IMG/VR virus record: IMGVR_UViG_3300048575_000501
Coordinates: 1-34,623 of that record
DNA from: a virus
Taxonomy: Duplodnaviria; Caudoviricetes
Length of the DNA: 34,623 nt
Direction: 5' to 3' (one strand)
In this document: positions 1-21,727 of the stretch, piece after piece
How positions within the stretch are numbered: position 1 is the stretch's first letter
Layout of the letters: every line of letters starts with the position of its first letter
Notes under the pieces: model-generated
The model's input: only the letters and a program-made list of their open reading frames with translations
Database searches by the model: none
What the model was told of the DNA's origin: nothing
Program-made: the position numbers and the translations under genes

Positions 1-2199
1 ATGACCGTCGCGCTTCCCGCAAACCGTGAATGGCTCACCGCCGCCGAAGCCGCCGCAGAGCAGCTTCCGAGTTTTCAATATGACGAGCGCCACATCAGGC
101 GTTTTCTCACCACAGGACAGATCGCATCCAGGCCGCGGCAAGGTACGCGCGGCCGTGAGTTCTCCTATCGCGATTTGCCCGAAGAAGCGCAGGCCGAATA
201 CCTGAAGCGTTACGGCCGCGCCACCACCGCGCTTGCGACCGACGACAAGCCAACGCGCGCGACAGAGAAGAAACTGCAGGCGCAGGCTCGCGCCGCGATC
301 GTCGATGCCGCCGAAGCGCTCATCGCGCGCAAGGGCAATGTCTCCGCAGCGCTCAAGACCCTCGCGAAGCTGTATAGCGCGCGCAAGGCCGGTGTGATGC
401 CTTGGGTTTACGAGAACCAAGCGTCGGCCGATCCCGACCAGGTCAGAACATGGCGCCGCAAGCTGCAGCGTGAAGGTCTTGATGGACTTCTCGATGGCCG
501 CGGCAAATCTGGCCGGCCGAATTCGATCGAAGCCGACCCGGAACTGAAGACACTCATCATCGCCGAAATCGGCGCACGCCCACATCTCGCCATTGCCAGC
601 GGCAAAGACGAAGAAGAAGGCGGCCTGCAGGGGATCATCCGCCGGCGCCTGGGGCGCGACATTCCGGTGCGCACATTGCAGCGCTATGTGGCGCCGCTGC
701 GTCCTGACCGCAATCCGCTGGTCAAAGCCCTTGCCGCGCCCGGCAAGTTCAAGAACTCGCACAAGACCGCGATCGGCTCGTATAGCCAGGATGTCGTTCG
801 CATCAACCAGCGCTGGGAAATGGATGCTACGCGCGGTGACGTGATGTGTGTCGTTACCGGGCCGGACGGAAAGCAGAGCGAGCGCCGCGTCGCCCTCACT
901 CAGGTTATCGACATCTTCACACGCCGCGCCTGCTTCGTCGTATCCGACCAGCCAAGCGGCGCGGCCACGCGCGCCACTGTGCGCAAAGCGATCCTCGCCT
1001 GGGGTATTCCCGAAACAATCAAAACCGACAACGGCAAGGAGTTTTCGAACTACGACGTCGAGCGGATGTGCCGCGAAGCCGGGATCACGCTGCAATACTC
1101 CCAACCCTTCCATCCTTGGGAGAAGCCGCACGTCGAGCGGATGTTCGGCACCATCCTGCATTGCTTGTTCGAAAAGCTTCCGGGCTATGTCGGGCACAGC
1201 GTCGCCGACCGCATCGAGATCGAAAATAAGAAATCGTTCCAGCACAAGTTCGGCGTTGACCGTCGCGTGTTGTTCGAAGTCGAGCTGTCGCCCGCAGACC
1301 TGCAGGCCCGCATCGATGCGTGGCAGACAAAGTTCTACGAGCAGGCTTTGCACATCGAGCTTGGGAATGCTCCCGCTTTGGTGGCCAGGGCTCACGCCCA
1401 CGAGGCAAAGCTTATCTCAGACGAGCGCATGCTTGATGCGCTGATGATGGACGCCAAGGTCTGTACGGTTTCAAAAGGTCTTATACGGTACAAAAACCGG
1501 TATTACGGATCGGACGAAACCGGCGCGATCGAGGTCACGCCGCGCTTCCACCGCAAGGTTCAGCTGCGTATCGATCCGCTCGATCCGTCATGGGCCGCGG
1601 TCTATTCGCCGGATGGCGCCGAGTTCCTCTGCATCGCCAAGGATGTTGACCAGCTCGAAAGCTCTGAGCGCCAGCGGATGGCCGTCGTCTGCAGCCAGAA
1701 CCAAGACAAAGTCGTCAACCTCTTTGTGCGCGGCATCCGCAAGGTTGGCGCCACGCACAACATCGTCGATGCGATGCTGGCATCGGAGGTTCCTGGCTTG
1801 ACCCTCTCGGGACCGGCTGCGGAGGGCATGATCCGCGCCGCGGCGCCGCAGATTGAGAAACACGTCAAGATGCTGACCGCACGATCCGACATGGATGCAC
1901 CGGTCGCACCGATCGAGGCAACGGCGGAAGAACTGGAGGCGGCTGCCCGCCTCACGTCGTCAACGACACCTAAGGCGCCGGTGGCGCGAACGGTCGAATG
2001 CAACGGCTACACGCGTCCGTTCTTTGAAGACGACGTCTATCTAGTTTTCTGGTGGGAAGAATTCGAGGCCGAAGGCGGCCGCCTGGACGAGGAAGACCTC
2101 GCCAAGCGCAAGGACCTGTATGGCGACGCAATGTTCTGCGAACGCCTGCGGGCCGCCCGCCTCGCCCGCACATCAACACAAGAACGAGGCTTCGCATGA
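1..2199 (+). CDS. MuA-like DDE transposase
   Basis: 732 aa; N-terminal Mu DNA-binding-like segment (EWLTAAEAA..LPS), DDE motifs WEMDAT / IKTDNGKEF / EKPHVERMF, C-terminal Mu-transposase beta region (GLIRYKNRYY..RIDPLD). Confidence 0.96.
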   Translation: MTVALPANREWLTAAEAAAEQLPSFQYDERHIRRFLTTGQIASRPRQGTRGREFSYRDLPEEAQAEYLKRYGRATTALATDDKPTRATEKKLQAQARAAIVDAAEALIARKGNVSAALKTLAKLYSARKAGVMPWVYENQASADPDQVRTWRRKLQREGLDGLLDGRGKSGRPNSIEADPELKTLIIAEIGARPHLAIASGKDEEEGGLQGIIRRRLGRDIPVRTLQRYVAPLRPDRNPLVKALAAPGKFKNSHKTAIGSYSQDVVRINQRWEMDATRGDVMCVVTGPDGKQSERRVALTQVIDIFTRRACFVVSDQPSGAATRATVRKAILAWGIPETIKTDNGKEFSNYDVERMCREAGITLQYSQPFHPWEKPHVERMFGTILHCLFEKLPGYVGHSVADRIEIENKKSFQHKFGVDRRVLFEVELSPADLQARIDAWQTKFYEQALHIELGNAPALVARAHAHEAKLISDERMLDALMMDAKVCTVSKGLIRYKNRYYGSDETGAIEVTPRFHRKVQLRIDPLDPSWAAVYSPDGAEFLCIAKDVDQLESSERQRMAVVCSQNQDKVVNLFVRGIRKVGATHNIVDAMLASEVPGLTLSGPAAEGMIRAAAPQIEKHVKMLTARSDMDAPVAPIEATAEELEAAARLTSSTTPKAPVARTVECNGYTRPFFEDDVYLVFWWEEFEAEGGRLDEEDLAKRKDLYGDAMFCERLRAARLARTSTQERGFA

Positions 2200-2495
2200 G
2201 CGCACACGCATTTTGCTGGGCATCTGGAGAAATCAAAATCGGCAAGCGCGTCCCAAAGGGCGCGCTTCCTCTTAACCTGCGCGGCGACGAGCGAAAGGTC
2301 AAAGCCTTCGTCGAGCGCTTTGCCCGCCACGCCTACGACGGCGTGACGATGTTGGTGCCGGGCGTCCCCGAAGCGCCGAACCAAGGCGTCGCGGTGAAGG
2401 CCCTCGCGCGTTTTTGCGACTGGATCCATTCCGCAGCGGTCGCGGATGGTCTGCGCGTCAACAATAAAGTTTCGAGCGAACACGCTGCCGAATAG
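2196..2495 (+). CDS. Conserved Mu-like phage early protein (99 aa)
   Basis: ATGA overlap with the transposase stop; AFCWASGEI..G..VP.GAL..ARHAYDG.T.LVPGVPEA resembles a recurring Mu-like prophage family. Confidence 0.75.
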   Translation: MSAHAFCWASGEIKIGKRVPKGALPLNLRGDERKVKAFVERFARHAYDGVTMLVPGVPEAPNQGVAVKALARFCDWIHSAAVADGLRVNNKVSSEHAAE

Positions 2496-2516
2496 GCGGC
2501 ACCTGGAGCATGTGAC

Positions 2517-3263
2517 ATGAGAACTGGTTTCTACGTTGAAGGGCTTTCCAACCACAGCCGCCTACTGGCGAAGCTGGAGGAAGTCCGCCATCGCGGCGCG
2601 CCGGAAGCGTGCTGGATTATGGCGATGGGCGAGCCCGGCTTCGGCAAGTCGAAGACATTGGCTTGGCTTGGCGTTCGGCAGAACGCGCTGATGCTGCGCG
2701 CCAAGGCCGAGATGAACGCGCTCTGGCTGCTCAACGAAATGGCGGAACAGCTCGGCATCGACACTGCCCGCACCAAGCAGCGGGCATTCAAGACTGTCCT
2801 GGCCGAGCTGATGGTCAAGCAGCCGATCATCATCATCGATGAAATCGATCACATCGCCCGCAAGCTGCTGTGCCTCGAAACACTGCGCGACCTGACGGAC
2901 ATGACGGAATGCGTCTTGGTGGCCGGTGGAACGTCGAACGCGCTGACCGCGATCAAGGGGTACAAGCAAATCCATTCACGCGTCTTCGACGTCGTCAACT
3001 TCGGCGCGGCAACCGCCGCCGACATCGCCACGATCGCGGACAACCTGATCGATGTGAAGATGGATCAGGCGCTGATAGCCCATATCCAGCACCGCACCGA
3101 AGGTCGCCTGCGTTTAATCATGAACGCACTCGCGCGGGTTGAAGCCTTCGGCCGTAAGGCGCGCAGCAAGACCGTCACCCTGGAAGACTTTGGCGCCACG
3201 CGTCAGCTCACCAATGACGAACGCTTGCGCCCTCAGCCCATGTTGGTGTCGAGCCATGGCTGA
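2517..3263 (+). CDS. MuB-like AAA+ transposition ATPase
   Basis: Walker A GEPGFGKS, Walker B IIIIDEID, C-terminal EGRLR; GGAG RBS upstream; follows the transposase. Confidence 0.93.
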   Translation: MRTGFYVEGLSNHSRLLAKLEEVRHRGAPEACWIMAMGEPGFGKSKTLAWLGVRQNALMLRAKAEMNALWLLNEMAEQLGIDTARTKQRAFKTVLAELMVKQPIIIIDEIDHIARKLLCLETLRDLTDMTECVLVAGGTSNALTAIKGYKQIHSRVFDVVNFGAATAADIATIADNLIDVKMDQALIAHIQHRTEGRLRLIMNALARVEAFGRKARSKTVTLEDFGATRQLTNDERLRPQPMLVSSHG

Positions 3264-8147: not shown

Positions 8148-8764
8148 CCACTCGCAACGAACTCCTCGGTGCCGTGCATAAGGCGGCGAAGCTGGCGGGC
8201 CTCGACGAGGACACCTATCGCGACAAGCTGGAGCAGCTCACCGGCAAGCGCTCCGCCAAGGACTGCTCCGACGCGGAATTGAGTCTGGTTCTTAACAATT
8301 TCCACGTGAAACACACCCAGACCACCCACCCCCATCACACCAAGATCAAGGCGCTGTTCATCGCCTGCTATAACCTTGGCATCGTCGAGACCGGCACCGA
8401 CGCGGCGCTCGACGCGTTTGTCTCACGCCAGACCGGCAAGCTTCGCCTGACCTTCGTGACCCCGGCCGAAAGCGCCGCCGTCATCGAGCCGCTCAAGGAC
8501 ATGCTGCGCCGGGAGGGTGTGTCGGACCTCGACGCTGGCGGCATCGCCGTCCGCGCCAGCCTGTGCAAGGCGCAGTGGGCCAAGCTCTTCAAGCTCGGCG
8601 CGGTGCGTATCGAAAGCGTTTGGGCGCTCGACAATTGGGCGAGCCGCTTCTTCAAGGTGGGAACGCGCAGCGTCGATAGCTTCACCGCGCGTGAACTCGA
8701 CACGCTGGCCCGCCGCCTTGGCGGATGGGTCCGGCAGCGTCAGGCGCAAAGGGCCGTTGCATGA
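8144..8764 (+). CDS. gemA: GemA / Mu gp16 (DUF1018) family protein
   Basis: LGAVHKAAKLAGLDEDTYRDKLEQLTGKRSAKD..EL..VL..KIKAL..ALDAFV.RQTG..VIEPLK.M; directly upstream of the Mor-family gene. Confidence 0.9.
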   Translation: MTTRNELLGAVHKAAKLAGLDEDTYRDKLEQLTGKRSAKDCSDAELSLVLNNFHVKHTQTTHPHHTKIKALFIACYNLGIVETGTDAALDAFVSRQTGKLRLTFVTPAESAAVIEPLKDMLRREGVSDLDAGGIAVRASLCKAQWAKLFKLGAVRIESVWALDNWASRFFKVGTRSVDSFTARELDTLARRLGGWVRQRQAQRAVA

Positions 8765-9210
8765 CATCCGCGGCCGAAAAGATCGCCGAGCGAGCCCTGC
8801 CGCAGGTCTATACCGTCCTGTTCGAAGCGGGCGGATGGGCGGCGGTGGAAGGCTTTGCGGCGGTCTATGCCGGCCGCTACATCCGCGTCCCACGCGTCAA
8901 GCTCGGCGATCATCACCCGATCGTGCAGGCGGCCGGCCGGGCCGCCGCCGACGCCCTGGTCGAACGTTACGGCGGCGATCCGTCATTCGAAGTGCCGATG
9001 GGCGGGCACTCATTGAGGCTGCTGATCGTCCAGGATAACCTCGACCTGCCGGTGAACAAGCTCGCCGGCCTGCTTGGCTGCACCTATCGCCACGCCTGGA
9101 ATTTGCGTAAAGAGGCGATGGCGGGTAAATCGCGCGGTCAACGCCGCCGCGGCCGTCCCCCGGCGCCGCGCGATCCGCGCCAGACCGATATCGAAGACTT
9201 CCTGAGATAA
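8761..9210 (+). CDS. Mor/C-family transcription activator
   Basis: YAGRYIRVP and YGGDPSFEVP Mor-like motifs plus C-terminal HTH (VNKLAGLLGCTYRHAW); lies between gemA and the lysis genes. Confidence 0.8.
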   Translation: MTSAAEKIAERALPQVYTVLFEAGGWAAVEGFAAVYAGRYIRVPRVKLGDHHPIVQAAGRAAADALVERYGGDPSFEVPMGGHSLRLLIVQDNLDLPVNKLAGLLGCTYRHAWNLRKEAMAGKSRGQRRRGRPPAPRDPRQTDIEDFLR

Positions 9211-18383: not shown

Positions 18384-19168
18384 TGGCTCTCGCCAAAGAT
18401 AGACTGATCCCCACACGTGGGGCTGAGTTCTTCGAAAAGCCCGTTTCGGCGGCGAAGACGCTCTATGCCGGAGCGATCGTGTGCCTCAATTTGGCTGGCG
18501 ATGCGACGCCTGGTGCAACCGCACTCGGCCTGAAAGCGATCGGTCGTTGCGAAGAGTTTTCCGATAACGCGCTTGGCTTGGCCGGCGACGTTTCGGTGAA
18601 GGTCCGCAGCGGCGTATTCCGGTTCGACAACAGCGCCAACGCCGACGCGATCACCGACGCCTATGTCGGCGAGCTTTGCTACATCGTCGACGACTGCACG
18701 GTCGCACTGACCAGTGGCGGCGGCACCCGCAGTGTGGCAGGTCGCATCATCGAGGTCGATGACGCGGGCGTGTGGGTCGAGCTTGGCACCGTGGTTTTCG
18801 ATCGTCAGAAACTCGGCGTTCCGGCCTTTGTCATCGGTGCCGAGGCGGGCAACGTCATCAACGTTGCGGTGCAGCTGAAGGATGCCGCTGGTGTCAACCT
18901 CGCCGTGCGCGCATCGCTGACCGCCTATCTGGCGACCGAAGCCCATGGCGACGTCCTTGCGGCCGCCGCGCCTTCTGGCGGTGTGGCCATCGGCGCCAAC
19001 GGCGTCGCGATCCCGCTGGTCGCCGGCAAGGCTTTCCAGCTCGTGTCGGAAGCCAACGGCACTATCGACCTCAACATCACCGAAGCCGGCGCCGCCACCT
19101 GGTACCTCGTCCTGGTCATGCCGGACGGGCGCCTGGTCGCTTCCAACGCCATCACCTTCGCTGCGTAA
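18383..19168 (+). CDS. Capsid decoration/cement protein with extra C-terminal beta-rich domain
   Basis: GAGGAG RBS; PV.A..LYAGAIV..G..V.V..GVF.F.NS..VG..CYIVDD.TV..RS.AG.I..VD..GVWV; lies between protease and major capsid. Confidence 0.75.
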   Translation: MALAKDRLIPTRGAEFFEKPVSAAKTLYAGAIVCLNLAGDATPGATALGLKAIGRCEEFSDNALGLAGDVSVKVRSGVFRFDNSANADAITDAYVGELCYIVDDCTVALTSGGGTRSVAGRIIEVDDAGVWVELGTVVFDRQKLGVPAFVIGAEAGNVINVAVQLKDAAGVNLAVRASLTAYLATEAHGDVLAAAAPSGGVAIGANGVAIPLVAGKAFQLVSEANGTIDLNITEAGAATWYLVLVMPDGRLVASNAITFAA

Positions 19169-19192
19169 GCGGCCCAAGCTGGAGACCCAGAC

Positions 19193-20095
19193 GTGATCAT
19201 CAATACCAAAAACCTGATGTTTCTGACGACGGCCGTCACCACGGTCTTCAATGGCGCTTTCGCCGGCTATACGCCGCGTTGGCAGAAGACTGCGATGTAC
19301 GTGCCCGCGACCGGTGTTCTGTCGCTGGATTACACGTGGCTGCGTCAGCTCAAGAAGATGCGCAAGTGGATCGGCGACCGTCAACTCGACGCGCTTTCCA
19401 CCAACGGCTATCGCATCGTCAACGAGCCCTACGAAAACACCATCGCCATTCCGCGCCCGAACATCGAGACCGATCAGTACGGCGTCTTTAATCCGATGTT
19501 CGCCGATCTCGGTCAGACCTCGGCCGAAAATCCCGACGACAATCTTTACGGTCTGCTCAACGCGGGCTTCACCACCGAGTGCCATGACGGCCAGTATTTC
19601 TTCGACACCGATCACCCGCGGCTTGATGCGGATGGCGCGGAGAAGTCGTGGTCGAACTTCATGGGCGGCGAAGGAACGCCTTGGTTCCTGATGTGCACCA
19701 AGAAGCAGCTGAAGCCGATGATCTTTCAGGAGCGTGTGAAGCCGCGCCTGGTGGCGATGGACGATCCGGCCAATCCGCACGTCTTCATGAAGAACGAATT
19801 CGTGCACGGCGTCGATTGCAGCCAGGGCTTCGGCTATGGCCTGCCCCAGCTTATCGTCGCCTCACGCAAGGACCTCACGCCGGCCAACTATGCCGAGGCT
19901 CGTGCGGCACTGTCGACGCTGCTTGGCGATCGCGATCGGCCGCTTGGCATTGTCGGTGACACGTTGCTGGTGCCGGGCTCCTACGAGGAGAAAGGTCTGC
20001 GCATTGTCAAAACGCAGACCGAGGCCGGCGGCGGCGGCAACCCCTGGTACGGCACGGCCGAGCTGGTGGTCGAACCGCTACTCGCGACCGCGTGA
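19193..20095 (+). CDS. Major capsid protein (Mu gpT family)
   Basis: GTG start after GGAG; Y.WL..MRKWIGDR..Y.IVN..YENTI..IE.DQYG..C.DGQYFFDTDH..PWFL..KPMIFQER. Confidence 0.95.
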   Translation: MIINTKNLMFLTTAVTTVFNGAFAGYTPRWQKTAMYVPATGVLSLDYTWLRQLKKMRKWIGDRQLDALSTNGYRIVNEPYENTIAIPRPNIETDQYGVFNPMFADLGQTSAENPDDNLYGLLNAGFTTECHDGQYFFDTDHPRLDADGAEKSWSNFMGGEGTPWFLMCTKKQLKPMIFQERVKPRLVAMDDPANPHVFMKNEFVHGVDCSQGFGYGLPQLIVASRKDLTPANYAEARAALSTLLGDRDRPLGIVGDTLLVPGSYEEKGLRIVKTQTEAGGGGNPWYGTAELVVEPLLATA

Positions 20096-20102
20096 GGGCG
20101 TG

Positions 20103-20447
20103 ATGGCAAAACCCGACACCCATATCGTCATCAAGTCCAAGCGCGACGGCTATCGCCGCGGCGGTGTTGCCCATCCCAAAGGCAGCACCACTTATCCGGT
20201 GGGGAACTTCACCAAAGACCAGGTCGAGGCTTTCAAGAACGATCCGCGTCTGGAGGTGAAGCTCACCGGCGAGGATGCGGGCGGCGGTCAAGGCGATTGG
20301 CCGCCGACCGAAGAAGCCCTGGCCGAGATGAAGCACGATGCGCTCGGCGAAATCCTCACCGCGCGCGGCGTCGATCCAGTGCCGTTGAAGAGCAAGGACG
20401 AGCGCCGCGCCGCCATCCGTGAGCTGGTCGCGAAAGAGAAGGCTTGA
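20103..20447 (+). CDS. HI1506-like Mu-prophage protein following the capsid gene
   Basis: I.SKRDGYRRGGVAH..FT.DQ..F.NDPRL.V plus a C-terminal small helical motif. Confidence 0.75.
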   Translation: MAKPDTHIVIKSKRDGYRRGGVAHPKGSTTYPVGNFTKDQVEAFKNDPRLEVKLTGEDAGGGQGDWPPTEEALAEMKHDALGEILTARGVDPVPLKSKDERRAAIRELVAKEKA

Positions 20448-20455
20448 ACGAACGA

Positions 20456-20532
20456 CGCGCGGTGGAGCAGCTCGGTAGCTCGCTAGGCCCATAACCTAGA
20501 GGTCGTCGGTTCAAATCCGACCTGCGCAACCA
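20456..20532 (+). tRNA. Initiator tRNA-fMet (CAT) with C33
   Basis: 77-nt cloverleaf: C1:A72 mismatch, G2-C71, C3-G70, A11-U24, anticodon stem CUAGG/CCUAG, loop CC-CAU-AA, T arm GUCGG-UUCAAAU-CCGAC, encoded CCA. Confidence 0.93.
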
Positions 20533-20623
20533 GATACCCAGGGCCTCTCTGATCCTGCTCGCAAGGCAGTCAGCACCCTTTGGGAACCTTCGAAGGTAGG
20601 GGCTTAGCCCGGAGGCCACTAAA

Positions 20624-20660
20624 GGGGGCGGCGACAGGTGATCGCCGTCCCCACCTTTAT
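20624..20660 (+). terminator. Putative weak intrinsic terminator/attenuator after the head genes and tRNA
   Basis: 11-bp stem GGGGGCGGCGA/TCGCCGTCCCC (one G-U), 7-nt loop, followed by ACCTTTAT (poor U tract). Confidence 0.45.
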
Positions 20661-20671
20661 CGAGAGGCGCC

Positions 20672-21100
20672 ATGTCATACGCCACCAAGGCAGATCTGAT
20701 TGCACGCTTCGGCCAGGATGAGCTGATCAAGTGCACCGATCGCACCAACCGTCCGCCGACGACGATCGACGACGATGCTGTCGGGCGCGCGCTCGATGAT
20801 GCTGACGGCGAGATCAACGGCTATCTGGCGAGCGGCGGTATCGTGACGCCGATGGCCGCGCCGCCTTCGGTGTTGGTGGCCAAGGCATGCGCGATGGCGC
20901 GCTACCTCCTGCACAAGGATATGGCGACGGACAAAATCCGCGCCGACTATGAAGACGCGCGCAGCTGGTTGCGCGATGTCGCCGCCGGCCGGGTCAAGCT
21001 TGGCGACGTCAGCGCGCCGGCCAAAGCGCCAAGCCTCGGCCCCGTTAAGGTGTCAGCGCCGCACCGGATGTTCACATCCGACGCCATGAAGGGCCTTTAA
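20672..21100 (+). CDS. Head-tail adaptor (Mu gp36 / DUF1320 family)
   Basis: MSYATKADLIARFG..EL..TDR..ALDDA..EINGYL..P..L...AC..ARY.L..YEDA..WL.DVA.G.V.L. Confidence 0.9.
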   Translation: MSYATKADLIARFGQDELIKCTDRTNRPPTTIDDDAVGRALDDADGEINGYLASGGIVTPMAAPPSVLVAKACAMARYLLHKDMATDKIRADYEDARSWLRDVAAGRVKLGDVSAPAKAPSLGPVKVSAPHRMFTSDAMKGL

Positions 21101-21727
21101 ATGGCAAGCGCCGCCCTCACCGTTACCGCGTCGGCCGACCTTAGCGCCTGGCAGGGCATGGCCGATCGCCTGCGTGCGTTTGGCGGCGCCCCGCTCGATG
21201 CGGCAATGGATGAAATTGGTGAGGGTTTGGTCTCATCGACCAAGGCGCGATTTCACGCGCAGCATGATCCCAGCGGAAATCCTTGGAAGCCATCGCAGCG
21301 GGCGATTGACGAACAAGGTGAGACGCTGATCGATACCGCAAAGCTGATCGGATCACTCACCCACAATGTGATGCAAGGCAAAGGCGTCGAGTGGGGATCG
21401 CCGATGGTCTATGCGCGCGTACACCAGGAGGGCGCCGACATCATCGTCTATCCGCGGTCGCAGAAAATCTACCGCGATAAGGAGAAGCTGCAGCGCGCGG
21501 CCAACCGGCCGTTCGGTGAAAAGGTCGATCTCTCGCTTTACCAGTTCGTCAAGAAGTCAAAGGCGACGTTCGAGAGCTGGGCCACGATCACCGAGAAGTA
21601 CACGATCCACGTCACCCCGCGCCCTTATCTCGGCATCGACAATGCTGACATCGCGATGGGCATCGGCGTGCTGACCCGTCACCTGTCGCAGCAGCTTCTC
21701 GGCCGCGCCCTGGGGGCGACGTCATGA
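21101..21727 (+). CDS. Virion morphogenesis protein (Mu gpG / tail-S family)
   Basis: MDEIGE.L..ST..RF..Q.DP.G.PW.P..TL.DT..L..S..YA.VHQ.G..PRPYLG. Confidence 0.88.
   Translation: MASAALTVTASADLSAWQGMADRLRAFGGAPLDAAMDEIGEGLVSSTKARFHAQHDPSGNPWKPSQRAIDEQGETLIDTAKLIGSLTHNVMQGKGVEWGSPMVYARVHQEGADIIVYPRSQKIYRDKEKLQRAANRPFGEKVDLSLYQFVKKSKATFESWATITEKYTIHVTPRPYLGIDNADIAMGIGVLTRHLSQQLLGRALGATS

Follow-up and report, generated by a model that had tools for sequence, protein, structure and literature searches.

A lone initiator tRNA with C33 at the head-tail junction of a Mu-like transposable phage, and the recurrence of C33 among viral initiators

The idea that phage tRNAs evade host nucleases through altered anticodon loops is already in print (PMC10264068), and a tested case is the tRNA-Lys of phage T5, in which anticodon-stem changes confer resistance to PARIS (PMC11464382). 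The dodging of host tRNA-cutting defences by phage tRNAs has been shown for a few elongator tRNAs only. Host systems that act on the initiator are also described: VapC toxins cut tRNA-fMet and AtaT acetylates it (reviewed in PMC7180214). Phage initiator tRNAs are known, as are single CAU tRNAs in temperate alphaproteobacterial phages (PMC12429752), and an au/GC/GC anticodon-stem variant of the initiator has been described for the Alphaproteobacteria (PMC5389676). Here we analyze a 34,623-nucleotide stretch of viral DNA, referred to throughout as the window, in which an initiator tRNA with an altered anticodon loop lies among the virion genes of a transposable phage.

The window encodes a MuA-type transposase, MuB, Gam, a Mor-type late activator, a gpT capsid protein and gp36, which is the gene complement of a Mu-like transposable phage, in a record that is without genome ends or a repressor. 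Because its capsid protein is also on record from a 330,459-bp contig, the window probably represents a prophage that was trimmed at gene boundaries. The genes that define the setting are the following.

1-3263, plus strand: MuA-type transposase (1-2199) and MuB-type ATPase (2517-3263), which mark a transposable phage.
8725-9210, plus strand: Mor/C-type late transcription activator (phrog_836), the presumed context for late expression.
19193-20095, plus strand: Mu gpT-like major capsid gene, by protein-family match.
20103-20447, plus strand: small FluMu_N-domain (Pfam; HI1506-like) gene directly upstream of the tRNA, absent together with the tRNA in the relative L283.
20672-21100, plus strand: Mu gp36-like head-tail adaptor that opens the neck/tail module, by protein-family match.

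The tRNA begins 8 bases after the stop codon of the FluMu_N gene and is followed by 139 bases before gp36. No sense-strand sigma-70 promoter or strong terminator was matched in 19000-21500; together with the 8-base gap, this makes it likely that the tRNA is co-transcribed with the late genes. The sequence-only reading of this DNA had stated that the tRNA is not an att-site remnant, and its internal site among virion genes, in a phage with a transposase instead of an integrase, rules out both such a remnant and tRNA-dependent lysogeny. Its features are given below.

20456-20532, plus strand: initiator-type tRNA-fMet(CAU) with encoded CCA and an alphaproteobacterial au/GC/GC anticodon stem (ARAGORN, Rfam, direct reading).
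20460-20524, plus strand: acceptor-stem flip C5-G68 (20460/20524), common to three phage copies, and G6-U67 wobble (20461/20523), found in the window only (alignment).
20489, plus strand: C33 replacing the near-invariant U33, with U in both tRNA-bearing relatives (direct reading, alignment).
20490-20492, plus strand: anticodon CAT (ARAGORN).

ARAGORN, run over the whole window, found this single tRNA of 77 nt, and the Rfam tRNA model matches it at 56.4 bits (E 9.4e-10), above the gathering score of 29. Direct reading gives the C1:A72 mismatch, G2-C71, C3-G70, A11-U24, A73, the encoded CCA, a 17a base in the D loop and an anticodon stem of A29-U41/G30-C40/G31-C39; every stem is paired, with pair 6-67 as a G-U wobble. 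The determinants read by the formylase are a mismatch at 1:72 with G2-C71, C3-G70, A11-U24 and A73, whereas elongator tRNA-Met and the lysidine tRNA-Ile2 have a Watson-Crick 1-72 pair and pyrimidine11-purine24. The window tRNA therefore has the cloverleaf, the CAU anticodon and the 1:72, 2-71, 3-70, 11-24 and 73 elements of a bacterial initiator tRNA-fMet, and, of the two anticodon stems accepted for initiators (three G-C pairs or au/GC/GC), the au/GC/GC form; C1:A72 and A11-U24 rule out elongator tRNA-Met and tRNA-Ile2 as its identity. Its one departure, the C at 20489, is from the general tRNA consensus U33, which is not an initiator determinant. Together these results bear out the earlier description of a complete, CCA-bearing 77-nt initiator with anticodon CAT, and direct reading upholds the C at position 33 in a molecule with all stems paired.

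Six related loci were found among genome contigs, one of them close. This locus, L011, lies on a contig of an alphaproteobacterial genome bin (G001) and encodes a capsid 84% identical to that of the window; at the same site it has a tRNA identical to the window's at 74/77 positions, set in head DNA that is 73% identical. The three differences are A28, which leaves an A28-A42 mismatch, U33 and C67. A scan for the window's tRNA type returned five viral stretches, one of which (L270, the same as L282, in record G519) has the same gene context. Its tRNA, also with U33, is identical to that of L011 at 77/77 positions and to that of the window at 74/77. Among the tRNA-bearing phages the flanking DNA is 68-73% identical and the gp36 protein 36-42%. 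No MuA match was found in the G519 record, which is 51% complete. In a further relative, L283 (G520), with MuA 71% and capsid 48% identical, the intergenic element is present and the tRNA and the FluMu_N gene are both absent. Five other host-family prophages (L405-L409; L405 is from the unpublished G512) have no tRNA at the junction, two more (L410, L411) stop short of it, and no initiator was found at the junction in L004-L010 and L012-L025, whose capsids are 30-56% identical and of which several are duplicate or partial. Outside this group, G119 has a tRNA with the same anticodon stem but with U33, and no Mu-like neighbours.

Three related phages, the window's included, thus carry the tRNA, whose sequence is much better conserved than the DNA around it, and C33 occurs in one of the three. 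The same tRNA in two relatives, its absence from L283 and the U33 of the relatives mark it, on sequence comparison, as a conserved accessory gene that is dispensable in the clade, with C33 specific to one lineage. Because both tRNA-bearing relatives have U33, C33 cannot be the reason the gene is kept. A survey of related Mu-like prophages, as the sequence-only reading had proposed, recovers the tRNA at this site (L011, L270) and does not recover C33.

In three other host-family Mu-like prophages the junction holds small accessory ORFs (L405 5593-7092, L406 7061-9752, L407 6499-7762), including an 81-aa protein matching phrog_4212 in both L406 and L407, and the site looks like a cargo slot. The window is itself mosaic: its head goes with L011 (capsid 84%), its MuA with L283 (71%) and its endolysin with G519 (86%), and in G519 a non-gpT head is joined to the same tail module.

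Homology switches near the tRNA. The window shares its head with L011, the head module of L270 is different, and the similarity between L270 and L011 begins at the tRNA and continues at 72.6%. This arrangement could be explained if the tRNA were a recombination linker between head and tail modules, its sequence kept uniform by exchange and not by function. We find that explanation barely credible: identity drops to ~73% right after the CCA, so that only the tRNA is held constant, and L283 has the tail-side element without the tRNA.

The location exactly at the head-tail junction, 8 bases past a stop codon and near a conserved hairpin, might instead indicate that the tRNA fold is mainly a processing signal, at which cleavage by RNase P and trimming of the 3' side would divide the late mRNA into head and tail portions and fix the ratio of the two. 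RNase P reads the acceptor and T arms. Here the anticodon and the initiator identity elements are conserved beyond what that enzyme needs, and L283, which lacks the tRNA, has the same order of genes and still contains the downstream element; we consider a processing role improbable. The earlier suggestion that RNase P would split the late mRNA survives as a likely side effect, one that is dispensable in the clade, given the tRNA-less L283. The sequence that follows the tRNA contains two features.

20533-20671, plus strand: structured intergenic region between the tRNA and gp36, with a homologous element in the tRNA-less L283.
20624-20652, plus strand: GC-rich hairpin followed by only a weak U tract, conserved in the window, L011, L282 and L283.

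Because L283 retains the homologous element without a tRNA, the region 20533-20671 is, by this comparison, not part of the tRNA unit. The hairpin at 20624-20652 is possibly an attenuator or stabiliser. The whole element before gp36 is ~130 bases long (window 20533-20671; L011 5990-6121; L282 3145-3279; L283 3148-3279) and consists of a multi-hairpin part and then a GC hairpin of 12-13 pairs, a layout conserved in the three relatives whether or not they carry a tRNA. The window recognizably keeps only the 3' half (nhmmer E 2e-6), and its 5' half folds into a similarly multibranched form. At the head-tail junction the element could serve as an attenuator, in antitermination or to stabilise the RNA. 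No Rfam family came near its gathering score for the window or L283 (the best in L283 was BjrC80, 24.8 bits against 80); Mu-gpT-DE, considered as a candidate name for the element, was not matched. By eye, window 20542-20553, the 5' arm of the multibranch stem, could form ~10 pairs with the ribosome-binding region of gp36 at 20659-20669, a complementarity that the relatives do not have and that may be due to chance.

For comparison with a host-type tRNA, we used the cellular initiator L027 of G001, the genome bin of the closest relative, as a stand-in for that of the window's own host. L027 differs from the window tRNA at 14/77 positions and from the L011 tRNA at 12/77. The sequence-only reading depended on the host tRNA-fMet not being identical, and relative to this proxy it is not. 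All 11 host-type copies (L027 and the ten genus loci L455-L464) have G5-C68 and U33, whereas C5-G68, C27-G43 and A42 are found in all three phage copies. The phage and host-type copies differ at pairs 27-43 and 28-42 of the anticodon arm and, through C5-G68, in the acceptor stem; among the regions that toxins may read, the phage tRNA departs from the proxy in these two and is unchanged at 38/39. No host nuclease was identified; two PIN-domain matches occur in G001, and the PIN family is present in 10/14 control genomes.

A single cellular initiator copy was found in G001; of the 254 alphaproteobacterial genomes that gave any match, many of them incomplete, most likewise show one. These counts would suit a dosage supplement, in which the phage tRNA adds initiator during late synthesis in low-copy hosts and C33 is a tolerated, drifting transition, and the lack of conservation of C33 at the locus would suit it as well. 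A host-like copy would serve that purpose best, yet 12-14 of 77 positions differ, and two divergent phages keep those differences exactly, including the A28-A42 mismatch.

The frequency of C33 was estimated by scanning one initiator pattern, with each base at position 33, against IMG/VR and two cellular groups. IMG/VR holds an estimated ~122 C33 initiators (119 stretches returned, of which 117 could be parsed and 94 were distinct, while 3 had a T loop of eukaryotic type), ~2,600 U33 initiators, a number estimated from 3/64 parts that includes host tRNAs on proviral contigs, and 1 stretch with A33 or G33. The C33 share of viral initiators is therefore ~4.5%, about one in twenty, and ~95% retain U33. 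The 401 alphaproteobacterial genomes gave C33 in 0/321 copies (321 U33 matches in 254 genomes), and the 111 genomes of a second phylum gave 1/106. This lone cellular C33 initiator (L454 5958-6034, in G655) also has U55C and lies beside two U33 copies; it is probably a decaying third copy. By these counts (~122 viral occurrences against 0/321 and 1/106 cellular copies), C33 is a recurrent viral trait that is nearly absent from cells in the two groups scanned; a host group with native C33 may exist elsewhere.

The viral C33 copies occur on 26 different anticodon stems and 46 acceptor stems, a diversity similar to that of the U33 sample, and U8, G53, U55, C56, A58 and C61 are kept about equally in the two. 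Imperfect acceptor stems are commoner with C33 (14/91 against 5/102 with U33, after 3 C33 and 4 U33 sequences with poor T-stem parsing were dropped). The window's 19 query proteins had no matches at the 119 C33 loci, and the other C33 initiators are therefore in unrelated phages. All eight cultured phages near the top of the listing have U33 initiators (C33 0/8). One unrelated phage (L271 2553-3032, minus strand) has, between its terminase large subunit and HNH endonuclease genes, a C33 initiator whose acceptor stem is identical to that of the window tRNA.

Position 38 of the viral initiators is also variable: 112 IMG/VR stretches (L284-L395) have a changed base, which is U in 64, C in 48 and G in none. 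Such changes are about as frequent as C33, 8/112 also carry C33, and none was found in 61 cellular genomes. Since G occurs in 0/112, the spectrum of loop changes is not plain transition bias. The U38 and C38 variants fall right at the reported VapC cut site.

Another account holds that the window has a recently damaged or mis-assembled copy of the clade's tRNA, its C33, found in just one phage at this locus, being either an error or a deleterious mutation private to that phage. Nor is C33 biochemically silent, since in vitro E. coli TsaBCDE cannot form t6A on an initiator transcript with U33C (PMC8887486). Against damage or error, each of the three positions at which the window departs from its relatives leaves the stems paired or re-forms a pair (U28-A42 restored, G6-U67 wobble, C33), and C is the one common replacement, found in 94 distinct viral initiators with intact stems; this account is very improbable. 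An assembly error in particular is unlikely, given that in viral initiators no base other than C commonly takes the place of U33.

We also looked at the other tRNAs of phages with C33 or U33 initiators, counting only those with a canonical 7-base loop. Long contigs were chosen, 20 per set by length among the first 80 listed, and 19 per set were examined over ~20 kb around the initiator. Beside a C33 initiator, C33 occurs in 18/178 other tRNAs and in 8/11 phages having other tRNAs; beside a U33 initiator, it occurs in 3/120 tRNAs and 1/13 phages (Fisher p 0.011 by tRNA and 0.002 by phage, with C33 elongators in some C33 loci already seen before sampling and one redundant pair of C33 loci). GC content does not differ between the sets (p 0.47). 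Three phages, L432 (G540), L439 (G547) and L442 (G550), have C33 in 3 to 6 different elongator tRNAs plus the initiator. By reading class, C33 in the C33 phages is found in 5/57 NNU tRNAs and 13/121 others, with a separate count giving 5/43 and 8/75. Avoidance of t6A was rejected as the driver of C33: viral C33 spreads beyond ANN-reading tRNAs, and loss of the modification is at most a possible consequence.

T-to-C changes at T-loop positions 54/55 were seen in 8/178 tRNAs of the C33 phages and 0/120 of the U33 phages, and this excess, together with that of imperfect acceptor stems in the C33 sets, fits relaxed constraint. Both excesses add to the case for a dosage supplement, as does the ability of C33 to function in the cytoplasmic initiators of multicellular eukaryotes (PMC8887486); the sequence-only reading had likewise stated that C33 occurs in some eukaryotic initiators. 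In addition, the anticodon nuclease gamma-toxin of the yeast K. lactis is blind to the substitution, its cleavage being unchanged by U33C (PMC2275089). That C33 groups by phage in different tRNAs, with no GC difference, speaks against drift in a dosage supplement, and on balance we judge that explanation unlikely though clearly possible. A broader proposal, tentative and in our view rather doubtful, is that U33C marks escape, throughout a phage's tRNAs, from host nucleases that recognize or cleave at the uridine preceding the anticodon; phages under that pressure would acquire it simultaneously in several tRNAs, and the initiator would tolerate it through its work in the P site.

The explanation that we put forward, with about even confidence, is that the tRNA is a phage-owned spare initiator that would be less well recognized by host tRNA-attacking toxins or nucleases than the host copy. 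It would be made as part of the late transcript, released by host RNase P and 3' nucleases, and then charged and formylated. It would be used in the ribosomal P site, where C33 would be tolerated as it is in animal and plant initiators, and the benefit would be a spare initiator when that of the host is cut or blocked. C33 is a late change, confined to one lineage, in a tRNA that was altered before it, and it is not the reason for which the gene is kept. It probably belongs to the recurring viral U33C trait, which may remove a uridine that some anticodon nucleases read or cut; a protective role of C33 itself is plausible but unproven.

The described nucleases bear on this spare-initiator explanation unequally. 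Cas13b6 cleaves after uridines, including U33 of tRNA-Val (PMC13692257); the Cas13 papers searched by term make no mention of tRNA-fMet as a substrate, and preprint supplements may list it. A single C5-G68 flip in E. coli tRNA-fMet lowers AtaT acetylation to 25-50%, and tRNAs with one flipped pair remain substrates (PMC7595197), so that the C5-G68 of the phage copies may, by analogy, be a lead to a route around AtaT and is not proof of one. The link from C33 to VapC drawn by the sequence-only reading is weakened: the cut is reported at 38/39 and not at 33 (PMC10264068 supplement), and A38 and C39 of the window tRNA are host-like, leaving the reported site unchanged. From the wider proposal of a nuclease-resistant initiator with an altered anticodon loop, what stands is that the tRNA differs from the host type, is kept in relatives and has a C33 that recurs in viruses; what weakens it is that C33 is not conserved at the locus and that gamma-toxin ignores the change. 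The points against a less-recognized spare initiator are accordingly that C33 is seen once at the locus, with U33 in both tRNA-bearing relatives; that gamma-toxin is unaffected by U33C, the VapC site is unchanged and AtaT still modifies flipped tRNAs; and that ~95% of viral initiators keep U33, with signs of relaxed constraint in the C33 sets.

That a small transposable phage keeps an initiator as its sole tRNA suggests a conflict aimed at translation initiation. The locus supplies a natural series of a C33 copy, two U33 copies with the A28-A42 mismatch and a tRNA-less relative; with the clustering of C33, it makes it possible to test directly whether escape drives the change of a near-universal tRNA base. 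Were the escape reading true, no system would be simpler for demonstrating it than a one-tRNA transposable phage with natural C33 and U33 relatives; were C33 neutral, the finding would be a modest one, a gene of known kind in a new setting. In the literature outside subscription papers, we found no account of C33 in phage initiator tRNAs or of an initiator in a Mu-like late operon. What is new is the series of C33, U33 and no tRNA at one locus, the viral and cellular counts, and the clustering of C33 by phage.

Compared with the described systems, the window tRNA shares with the alphaproteobacterial au/GC/GC tRNA-fMet (PMC5389676) the C1:A72 mismatch, A11-U24, A29-U41/G30-C40/G31-C39, CAU and A37-A38, and it departs from L027 in C33, C5-G68, G6-U67, C27-G43, U28-A42 and a different T stem, within the total of 14/77. 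The initiator tRNA-Met of multicellular eukaryotes (PMC8887486) is likewise a working initiator with a natural C33. Unlike it, the window tRNA is otherwise bacterial, with C1:A72 and a UUC T loop, and the likeness at C33 is convergent, without transfer. Phages with tRNA-dependent lysogeny or att remnants (summarized in PMC12429752) are also temperate and have a complete tRNA of their own; unlike theirs, the window tRNA lies 20 kb inside a transposase-encoding genome, unlinked to an integrase or att site. PMC6536676 was considered as a precedent and set aside, as it concerns tRNA-Met as an integration site. The phiLM21-like Sinorhizobium prophages (PMC12429752) are nearer in kind, being temperate alphaproteobacterial phages with a single CAU tRNA off the att site; however, in phiLM21 that tRNA has U33 and lies just before the terminase genes, whereas that of the window has C33 and lies at the head-tail junction, and they use a tyrosine integrase whereas the window phage is Mu-like. 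The fMet rows of the PMC10264068 supplement have U33, in contrast to the C33 found here. The T5 tRNA-Lys that resists PARIS (PMC11464382) and the tRNAs of the PMC10264068 hypothesis have in common with the window tRNA that a phage tRNA differs from that of the host in the anticodon stem-loop. In T5, a large lytic phage, the tRNA belongs to a cluster and the nuclease has been tested, whereas the window, known from sequence, has in a transposable prophage a lone tRNA that is an initiator and is changed at U33.
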